This document shows, piece after piece, positions 4,984 to 5,340 of a DNA stretch of 40,637 nucleotides. Within the stretch, counting starts at the first letter, position 1, and every line of letters starts with the position of its first letter. Where the stretch lies: the sequence record PQ729991.1; one strand, written 5' to 3'. Source of the DNA: Escherichia phage BUCT823. Under the pieces are notes generated by a model. That model worked only from the letters and a program-made list of their open reading frames with translations, did not search any database and was not told the DNA's origin. Position numbers and translations under genes: made by a program.

Positions 4984-5010
4984 GCAAAAAGAAAGGGGCG
5001 TTAAGCCCCT
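4984..5010 (-). terminator. rho-independent terminator for the leftward XRE-regulator transcript
   Basis: stem AGGGGC/GCCCCT with 5-nt loop; on the minus strand it is followed by a T-rich run (TTCTTTTTGC). Confidence 0.5.
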
Positions 5011-5216
5011 TCACCGAATGCCAGCCACTTAGCGTCTACTTGCAGCACTTCCGCCAGTTTAAACAGCGTCGCCGGGCGGACGTCCTGAGTTACTCCAAGT
5101 GCCAGCTGGTTAATTGCGCCCTGGGAAACACCAGCCAGGACCGCAAGACGGCGCTGGGAGATGCCTAGTTCTTTACGGCGTTGTTCTACACGGATGCCTA
5201 GTTCAGATGGTTGCAT
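5001..5216 (-). CDS. XRE/Cro-CI-type HTH transcriptional regulator (71 aa)
   Basis: ISQRRLAVLAGVSQGAINQL is a classic HTH_3 helix-turn-helix; AAGGAG RBS; divergent from tandem early promoters. Confidence 0.75.
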   Translation of the reverse strand: MQPSELGIRVEQRRKELGISQRRLAVLAGVSQGAINQLALGVTQDVRPATLFKLAEVLQVDAKWLAFGEGA

Positions 5217-5236
5217 GTCGATTACTCCTTAGTCGG

Positions 5237-5265
5237 TTGATATGTGAATAGTACCATATTAATTA
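5237..5265 (+). promoter_or_regulatory. candidate promoter TTGATA-N17-TAATTA; a leftward extended -10 (TGG-TACTAT) for the XRE gene overlaps on the opposite strand
   Basis: hexamers read directly; contains a degenerate GAATAG-N4-ATATT palindrome. Confidence 0.4.
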
Positions 5266-5280
5266 TTTTAGAAAAGCCCA

Positions 5281-5309
5281 TTGACATGTGAATAGTTCGC
5301 TATTATAGT
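5281..5309 (+). promoter_or_regulatory. strong sigma70-like promoter TTGACA-N17-TATAGT with palindrome GAATAG-N4-CTATT in the spacer
   Basis: perfect -35, 17-nt spacer, near-consensus -10; same architecture at 7397-7425 and 10884-10912. Confidence 0.7.
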
Positions 5310-5340
5310 TAGCCCATACCAAACGAGAGGAGAGGAACAA

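Follow-up and report, generated by a model that had tools for sequence, protein, structure and literature searches.

The window analysed here, the 40,637 nucleotides (nt) of Escherichia phage BUCT823 in record PQ729991.1, corresponds to the nearly complete genome of a Kagunavirus-type siphophage (Guernseyvirinae) and carries a leftward gene for a small XRE-type regulator, whose promoter, operator-like palindromes and possible reach are the subject of this analysis. Approximately 450 phage records match bases 4000-9000, mostly from Escherichia and Salmonella phages and at best with 88-92% identity, and the gene order is that of the annotated relatives Bas70, SE2 and phiSD1. The XRE gene is the sole leftward interruption of a rightward replication module that extends from approximately position 2226 to 13050; the remainder of the genome is a long leftward set comprising the small early genes and the lysis, packaging, head and tail genes. 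The direct neighbours of the XRE gene are a convergent helicase-primase gene (2746-4983, + strand) and the gene of an acidic protein without a family match. The coordinates of promoters, palindromes and genes are collected in Table 1.

The XRE protein belongs to the Pfam family HTH_3 (PF01381; 48.1 bits against a cut-off of 23, E 1.2e-12, residues 11-65), which confirms an earlier note on this DNA in its call of a leftward 71-amino-acid XRE helix-turn-helix (HTH) protein. Its closest solved relative is 434 Cro (phmmer E 4.9e-7 to 1zug/2cro/3cro, residues 6-68). The AlphaFold (AF2) model consists of five helices with a predicted local distance difference test (pLDDT) score of 79, and the top Foldseek matches of this model were the N-terminal domain of the 434 repressor and 434 Cro (probability 1.00 to 1pra, 2cro and 3cro), with SinR, C-proteins and P22 c2 also among the matches. 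Having approximately 70 amino acids, a five-helix DNA-binding domain alone and similarity over the full length, the protein is, by sequence and predicted fold, of the 434 Cro-type single-domain class. The HTH is unchanged in Kagunavirus variants down to 77% identity, and a word-indexed protein search returned relatives at 77% identity or more only, all of them with an identical HTH. Outside Guernseyvirinae, the nearest relatives are temperate-phage proteins of the Cro/CI type. Hundreds of genomes from three genera retain the gene together with its HTH, promoter and operators, and the ribosome-binding site is invariant in the relatives. At the other end of the gene, the stop codon lies within the loop of a terminator-like hairpin that separates the convergent helicase-primase and XRE genes. 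No experiments on the XRE protein were found in the literature searched.

The 5-N4-5 palindrome that occurs most frequently in the genome is AATAG-N4-CTATT. With up to one mismatch it is found 13 times in the window, eight times exactly, where 0.89 copies are expected, and none of 100 shuffles reached 13. Ten or 11 of the 13 copies are located on intergenic promoter-like sequence; chance may account for those at 33311, which overlaps a start codon, and at 16818, within a tail gene. Two copies stand between the XRE gene and the gene of the acidic protein and are termed O-xre and O-P2. The exact copy, O-P2, extends from 4 nt after the -35 of the rightward promoter P2 to the first base of its -10 (approximately -26 to -13), and the weakened copy, O-xre, covers the -10 of the leftward promoter PXRE. 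Another palindrome, ATTGACATGTGAAT, matches at 12/14 positions over the P2 -35 and was rejected as an operator; in relatives it is altered and a base is inserted within it.

Promoters P1 and P2 were scored as matches to TTGACA and TATAAT-like hexamers 17 +/- 1 base pairs (bp) apart in a 13.3-kb scan. Matches of at least 11/12 number four in the whole window against 0.54 expected, and both hexamers of P2, which is one of this strength, are invariant in relatives; by its sequence P2 is a sigma-70 promoter. The earlier note had described tandem rightward promoters at this locus, of which P2 is convincing and P1 is not. Matches at the 9/12 level of P1 are not above chance in the scan (15 against 11.2 +/- 3.9 expected), and several relatives have a degraded P1 -35 (TTGATG, TTTATA, TCGATA, CCGATA), so that P1 was not accepted as a real promoter. 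The two elements form a 25-nt direct repeat, with 84% identity and a distance of 44 bp between the copies, and P1 is probably a diverged duplicate of P2 rather than an independent promoter. The A/T-rich block 5256-5275 that holds the P1 '-10' is situated at -60 to -41 of P2, which would be the position of an UP-element. The genes behind P2 are those named earlier, encoding the acidic protein and a DUF2800/PD-(D/E)XK nuclease.

A leftward extended -10 overlapping a degenerate palindrome copy was likewise proposed before and was found again: TGGTACTAT of PXRE lies inside AATAGTACCATATT of O-xre. TGnTACTAT has its sole occurrence in the window at this site. With TGn, A at position 2 and T at position 6, PXRE has the features of an extended -10 promoter and is expected to be active, with a predicted start near 5241 and a predicted 5' untranslated region of approximately 25 nt. 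Its -10 and flank, TACTATTCA, recur in four other phage promoters, and PXRE can be described as a -10 (TACTATTCA) of the type designated class 2 below, without a -35 and with TGn in its place. Jerseyviruses have TACTAT at the same position as the PXRE -10, together with a TTGCGT -35.

The remaining palindromes extend this picture to the whole genome. Promoters 5281 (P2), 7397 and 10884, termed class 1, all match the promoter consensus at 11/12 positions and all read TTGACA-nnnn-AATAG-nnnn-CTAT-TATAGT. In class-2 promoters (TTGCAC-17-TACTAT type) the palindrome spans the -10. Across all promoters it starts 4, 7 or 10 nt behind the -35 or covers the -35 itself, and this variable register indicates that the palindrome acts as a separate element and not as a fixed polymerase contact. 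The scope of three local promoters envisaged in the earlier note is too narrow, as the same operator-like sequence is present at 7397/7407, 10884/10894, 455, 778, 1816, 22641 and 31202, with weaker copies elsewhere. Two open reading frames (ORFs) at these promoters deserve comment. The 64-amino-acid ORF 10946-11140, annotated as 'transcriptional regulator' in phiSD1, was rejected as such, having no DNA-binding family match. The 109-amino-acid ORF 22557-22886 (+ strand), a 'glycoprotein precursor' in phiSD1, starts upstream of the class-2 promoter/operator 22625-22654 and includes both; either its annotated start is wrong or the promoter is intragenic. At the boundary of the leftward and rightward gene sets, strong promoters stand back to back (2182-2254; leftward TTGACA-17-TAAGAT, rightward TTGATT-17-TATACT). 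No copy of AATAG-N4-CTATT was found at these divergent promoters, which may be immediate-early promoters free of the operator. A 56-amino-acid HTH_17 (excisionase/MerR-like) protein, a second small DNA-binding protein in a phage without integrase, is encoded by the gene that opens the rightward operon (2287-2457, + strand).

Table 1. Positions of the XRE locus, promoter-like sequences, operator-like palindromes and downstream genes in the window
Feature	Position	Strand	Details
XRE/HTH_3 single-domain gene, 71 amino acids	5001-5216	-	pI 9.7; recognition helix GVSQGAINQL
XRE ribosome-binding site	5224-5229	-	AGGAGT, 7 nt upstream of ATG
Intrinsic-terminator-like hairpin and T-run, XRE transcript end	4991-5012	-	8 pairs, 5 GC, tail CTTTTTGCCT
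O-xre, proximal operator candidate	5247-5260	.	AATAGTACCATATT, 9/10 arm match; spans PXRE -10 and TG
O-P2, full operator candidate	5291-5304	.	AATAGTTCGCTATT, exact; in P2 spacer
PXRE, extended -10 without usable -35	5256-5248	-	TGGTACTAT (TGn + TACTAT)
P1, weak promoter-like match	5237-5265	+	9/12: TTGATA-17-TAATTA, or 18-AATTAT
P2, sigma-70 consensus, acidic-protein/exonuclease operon	5281-5309	+	TTGACA-17-TATAGT, 11/12
Distal leftward promoter candidate	5292->5265	-	TTCACA-16-TAAAAT, 10/12; -35 abuts O-P2; status uncertain
Acidic 165-amino-acid protein, first gene of P2 operon	5341-5838	+	pI 4.4; PHROG 3127; function not assigned
90-amino-acid ORF preceding exonuclease gene	5882-6154	+	
DUF2800 / PD-(D/E)XK exonuclease, P2 operon	6136-7392	+	DUF2800 E 4e-68
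Class-1 promoter TTGACA-17-TATAGT	7397-7425	+	exact operator 7407-7420; precedes genes for single-stranded DNA-binding protein and DNA polymerase
Single-stranded DNA-binding protein gene	7479-8105	+	behind promoter 7397
DNA polymerase gene	8167-10350	+	behind promoter 7397
Class-1 promoter TTGACA-17-TATAGT	10884-10912	+	exact operator 10894-10907; precedes 64-amino-acid ORF and SNF2-type helicase gene
SNF2-type helicase gene	11143-12567	+	behind promoter 10884, after 64-amino-acid ORF
Class-2 promoter TTGCAC-17-TACTAT	484->456	-	exact operator 455-468 over -10; small genes 257-424, 33-260
Exact operator	778-791	.	AATAGTAACCTATT; gap 663-797; minus-strand TACTAT; upstream of leftward gene 492-662
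Class-2 promoter TTGCAC-17-TACTAT	1845->1817	-	exact operator 1816-1829; upstream of small leftward genes 1380-1697
Class-2 promoter TTGCAC-17-TACTAT	22625-22654	+	exact operator 22641-22654; toward DNA-repair-exonuclease island 22925-24079, inside late region
One-mismatch palindrome	31111-31124		just upstream of class-2 promoter 31186
Class-2 promoter TTGCGC-17-TACTAT	31186-31215	+	exact operator 31202-31215; toward small plus-strand island 31242-31684
Promoter TTGACT-17-TATATT	38390-38423	-	one-mismatch operator 38410-38423 over -35; upstream of small genes preceding terminase genes

Conservation was followed in 37 Kagunavirus loci from IMG/VR, which contain 36 distinct sequences of the region between the XRE gene and P2. 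All 37 loci have an exact site 88-89 bp and a 9/10 site 44 bp upstream of the XRE ATG, and the arms of O-xre and O-P2 are invariant in all 36 distinct sequences. The centre of O-P2 takes six forms (TTCG, CTCG, TTAG, TTCA, TTTG and CTAG), and a 1-nt indel occurs between the P2 -35 and O-P2. CA..TACTAT of PXRE is invariant save for the n of TGn, which is also the sole variable base of O-xre, as would be expected of an extended -10 promoter that overlaps an operator. Among the orthologues of promoter 7397 (33 Kagunavirus and 11 Jerseyvirus loci), the centre varies and the arms are stable, apart from two cases in which a single arm deviates. Kagunaviruses differ in the first gene of the P2 operon and not in its promoter and operators, since some phages, namely Bas70 (L001 7336-7563), L040, L016, L020 and L026, have an extra gene of approximately 75 codons inserted between P2 and the acidic-protein gene.

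Seven palindromes against 1.4 expected were counted in the Jerseyvirus SE2 (L002), where they are positioned at orthologous promoters, one of them in a third register that starts 7 nt after the -35. The SE2 orthologue of promoter 10884 carries an exact AATAGAACACTATT, the promoter orthologous to 22625 has its operator in another register, and the arrangement of 38390-38423 is repeated at SE2 15716-15749. Jerseyviruses also have an imperfect palindrome over the XRE -10. Cornellvirus-type phages showed no enrichment of AATAG-N4-CTATT (1 against approximately 1 expected). Two of them, L003 and L004, contain 10-12 looser, asymmetric ATTAG-N4-GTAWT sites where approximately 4 are expected, also in the spacer of the P2 equivalent (e.g. 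L004 9671-9684), and this pattern is regarded as tentative. The XRE gene of L003 and L004 is co-oriented with the helicase-primase gene and not convergent.

The palindrome was linked to the protein through relatives in temperate phages. Repressors 39-43% identical to the window protein and with a helix 3 of the pattern [ST]QGxIxQ were found on six IMG/VR contigs (L059, L061, L062, L063, L064 and L068), which represent five lineages (L062 and L063 being one) with GC contents of 46-63% and mutual identities of 39-62%. The L059 and L062 repressors, both of which were scanned, contain Peptidase_S24 domains, and in L059 a divergently oriented cro-like gene shares this helix-3 pattern. All six loci hold exact A[AT]TAG-N4-CTA[AT]T sites, as a rule two or three at distances of 24 bp, in the stretch 30-70 bp upstream of the repressor gene; of this exact generalised pattern, approximately 4e-4 copies are expected per 100 bp. 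Four of the loci (L059, L062, L063 and L064) have a second pair of sites, 25 bp apart, just beyond the repressor gene, which resembles the arrangement of OR and OL in lambdoid phages. Homologues with other helix-3 sequences (L005, L055, L058 and L065) have no such site at that position. Proteins of the 434 type bind 14-bp two-fold sites, the central 4 bp of which are not contacted. The palindromes of the window have this geometry, are enriched and combine conserved arms with a variable centre. Because relatives with the same helix 3 stack this site in their cI-cro regions, AATAG-N4-CTATT is the predicted operator of the XRE protein and very probably its true one.

Four points weigh against this assignment or its consequences. 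The Jerseyvirus XRE protein differs at four helix-3 positions (SQSLITH against SQGAINQ) amid AATAG-type sites, and no alternative palindrome was obtained for the sister genera by exact-palindrome and k-mer enrichment in SE2, FSL SP-031 and St162, which returned terminators, GC-rich composition effects and an unrelated over-represented 11-mer only. For both reasons, protein and site do not co-vary cleanly across the genera. The right arm of class-2 palindromes is the -10 itself (TACTAT) and that of class-1 palindromes touches the -10, so that the conservation of the arms is partly explained by promoter function. The HTH_17 protein could be a binder of the palindrome. Finally, it is from the position of the sites that repression rather than activation is deduced.

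With moderate confidence, we propose for the XRE protein the role of an orphan repressor of the 434 Cro type in a strictly lytic phage, where it would bind as a dimer to 14-bp operators placed in promoters for the host sigma-70 polymerase. According to this model, host RNA polymerase (sigma-70) would initiate at the consensus promoters of the phage, and the XRE protein would be made from its own weak extended -10 promoter and build up. At P2, P7397, P10884 and the class-2 promoters, its dimers would then fill the exact operators, located in the spacer or on the -10, and exclude the polymerase, so that the operons of the replication module would be shut down once the protein has accumulated. 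O-xre, with its 9/10 match in the class-2 register, would be occupied last, at higher protein levels, and would cap XRE synthesis by negative autoregulation; the operator-free promoters near 2200 would stay on. Early and middle transcription of a lytic phage would thereby be turned down genome-wide in a Cro-like manner. Autoregulation and control of the early operon, both suggested in the earlier note, thus remain a reasonable inference from a full operator in the P2 spacer and a weakened copy over the PXRE -10. On the distribution of sites, the regulator is more likely to be a genome-wide shut-off factor for early and middle genes than part of a local three-promoter circuit. A bolder version, which we regard as rather doubtful, makes one orphan Cro the master timer of a whole subfamily of strictly lytic siphophages. 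It would employ a single 14-bp operator in three registers at at least nine promoters (replication operons, early small-gene operons and two counter-oriented islands in the late region), possibly stimulating its own distal promoter from O-P2. As kagunaviruses and jerseyviruses have the operator in common, it would in this version also shut off early promoters of a related phage arriving in an infected cell, a repressor-based cross-exclusion without lysogeny.

An alternative that we consider unlikely holds that the palindrome is not the operator of the XRE protein, being either a phage-specific promoter signature or the site of some other factor, such as the HTH_17 protein or a host protein; the XRE protein would then bind elsewhere or at one local site. 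HTH_17/Xis-type proteins, to our knowledge, do not typically use 5-4-5 palindromes, which speaks against that candidate. The promoter reading has been published: for Kagunavirus fBC-Eco01 the PHIRE consensus tgAATAGTa-ccTATTat-T, the same motif, occurs in seven copies per genome and was attributed to a phage-encoded RNA polymerase (PMC9825357), and seven PHIRE promoters are likewise listed for vB_EcoS-Golestan (PMC7203180). It agrees with such a reading that the motif always overlaps promoter hexamers. However, no RNA polymerase was found among the largest ORFs, which encode tail, tape-measure, tailspike, DNA polymerase A and helicase (SNF2) proteins, or in the annotations of relatives, and since no such polymerase is encoded, the attribution made for fBC-Eco01 does not hold. 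The motif is located inside sigma-70-type promoters, its register to the -35 and -10 is variable, and it matches the operator type of the XRE relatives. Binding by another factor is favoured by the deviating helix 3 of the Jerseyvirus protein at an unchanged motif and by the presence of another encoded HTH protein, and is countered by the five independent temperate lineages that combine the same helix 3 with this half-site in their immunity regions.

Quite unlikely, in our estimation, is a dual regulator that represses P2 from O-P2 while activating the distal leftward promoter (absent from the earlier note), with O-xre subsequently limiting synthesis, in the manner of lambda CI at PRM or of the controller (C) proteins of restriction-modification systems. 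The distal promoter scores 10/12, O-P2 is by arithmetic centred approximately 40 bp upstream of its start, and C-proteins are among the close structural matches of the XRE protein. Against this, the last two positions of its -35 vary among relatives, its -10 varies in two of them and jerseyviruses have another sequence there; moreover, we know of no Cro-type single-domain protein that acts as an activator.

The local Cro/CI-like switch proposed in the earlier note, which would confine the regulator to its own promoter and a tandem pair of rightward ones, is very unlikely. It can draw on the divergent geometry and on the two operator copies 44 bp apart between regulator gene and operon, and its Cro-like part is borne out by the 434 Cro match and the five-helix fold. 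The switch itself finds no counterpart. A divergent CI-type repressor sharing the operators, or any second regulator, is missing from the locus; the annotations of the close relatives phiSD1, SE2 and Bas70 list no CI or S24 gene; neither an integrase nor a CI-type repressor is found in these three; and complete annotated relatives have no lysogeny functions (integrase, partition system). The group is described as lytic in published papers. Instead of three tandem operators (OR1-3) approximately 20-25 bp apart there are two sites, separated by 44 or 45 bp depending on the phage and hence without fixed phasing. At least seven further exact operators are found at other promoters, and one of the two tandem promoters, P1, is at chance level and has a -35 that is not conserved. 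As no CI partner is present, the repressor proposed here would not form a bistable switch. Most improbable is that the XRE gene survives as a leftover from a temperate ancestor or has some other function (antitoxin-like, or interference with competing phages) and none in the timing of its own phage: its closest relatives outside Guernseyvirinae are temperate Cro/CI proteins and cross-repression through the common operator is conceivable, but the retention of gene, HTH, promoter and operators over so many genomes argues for a current function on the phage's own promoters.

Several observations outside the regulatory circuit are recorded here. Two HNH_3 endonuclease genes (12564-13049, + strand, also with an AP2 domain, and 24095-24595, + strand), whose presence differs among relatives, are likely homing endonucleases. 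Just downstream of the promoter of the single-stranded DNA-binding protein gene, the non-coding sequence CACTGGCCGGGCAG (7432-7452) is conserved in Kagunavirus, Jerseyvirus and Cornellvirus-type phages (L002, L003, L004) between differing flanks; a hairpin in this conserved 5' untranslated region was rejected, its stability not exceeding that of shuffles (z = 0.72). A search of the window against Rfam gave no match. Six copies of the 11-mer ACAACGGCAAC, most of them intragenic, are spread over both strands (1868-1878, 7071-7081, 9911-9921, 15748-15758, 28053-28063 and 31445-31455), 9-10-mers overlapping it reach up to ten copies, and SE2 has a related CACAACGGCAA four times. It could reflect codon or peptide bias or be a recognition site.

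Phage therapy and food biocontrol are widely proposed uses of kagunaviruses and jerseyviruses, whose 'transcriptional repressor' gene is either ignored or prompts questions about lysogeny. If an orphan Cro does shut off early and middle promoters, this would explain why a lytic phage retains a repressor, and the published assignment of the motif to a phage polymerase would be corrected. The system would also offer a compact repressor/operator pair with a graded set of promoters for reuse. A textbook mechanism would thereby be extended, rather than new biology uncovered.

Among known systems, the closest is that of phage 434. Like 434 Cro (PDB 2CRO/3CRO), which aligns over its full length, the XRE protein has 71 amino acids, a single HTH_3 domain and five helices. 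Its predicted 14-bp two-fold site with 5-bp arms and a variable 4-bp centre resembles the operators of 434 and P22 c2, and as in the 434/P22 system the sites overlap core sigma-70 promoter elements. The half-site differs (AATAG in the window, ACAAG in 434), and the window lacks a CI partner, the OR1-OR3 triplet and a lysogeny module; its predicted operators are spread over at least nine promoters of a lytic genome, whereas those of 434 form two immunity-region clusters. The temperate relatives L059, L061, L062/63, L064 and L068 share the [ST]QGxIxQ helix 3 and the operator type A[AT]TAG-N4-CTA[AT]T. Most of their proteins are longer than that of the window, although the L068 protein has just 72 amino acids, and their loci are classical switches, with operators 24-25 bp apart in OR-like clusters (and OL-like ones in four) next to a divergent cro-like gene. 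Lambda Cro is a parallel in the proposed role, which is read from site positions, as a small dimeric repressor made early that lowers the early promoters and its own gene region; its fold is winged and beta-containing, unlike that of the XRE protein, and it acts at OR and OL only. By function and family, the XRE protein would thus be a 434-Cro-type repressor of a well-known kind, with a reach wider than the earlier note assumed.

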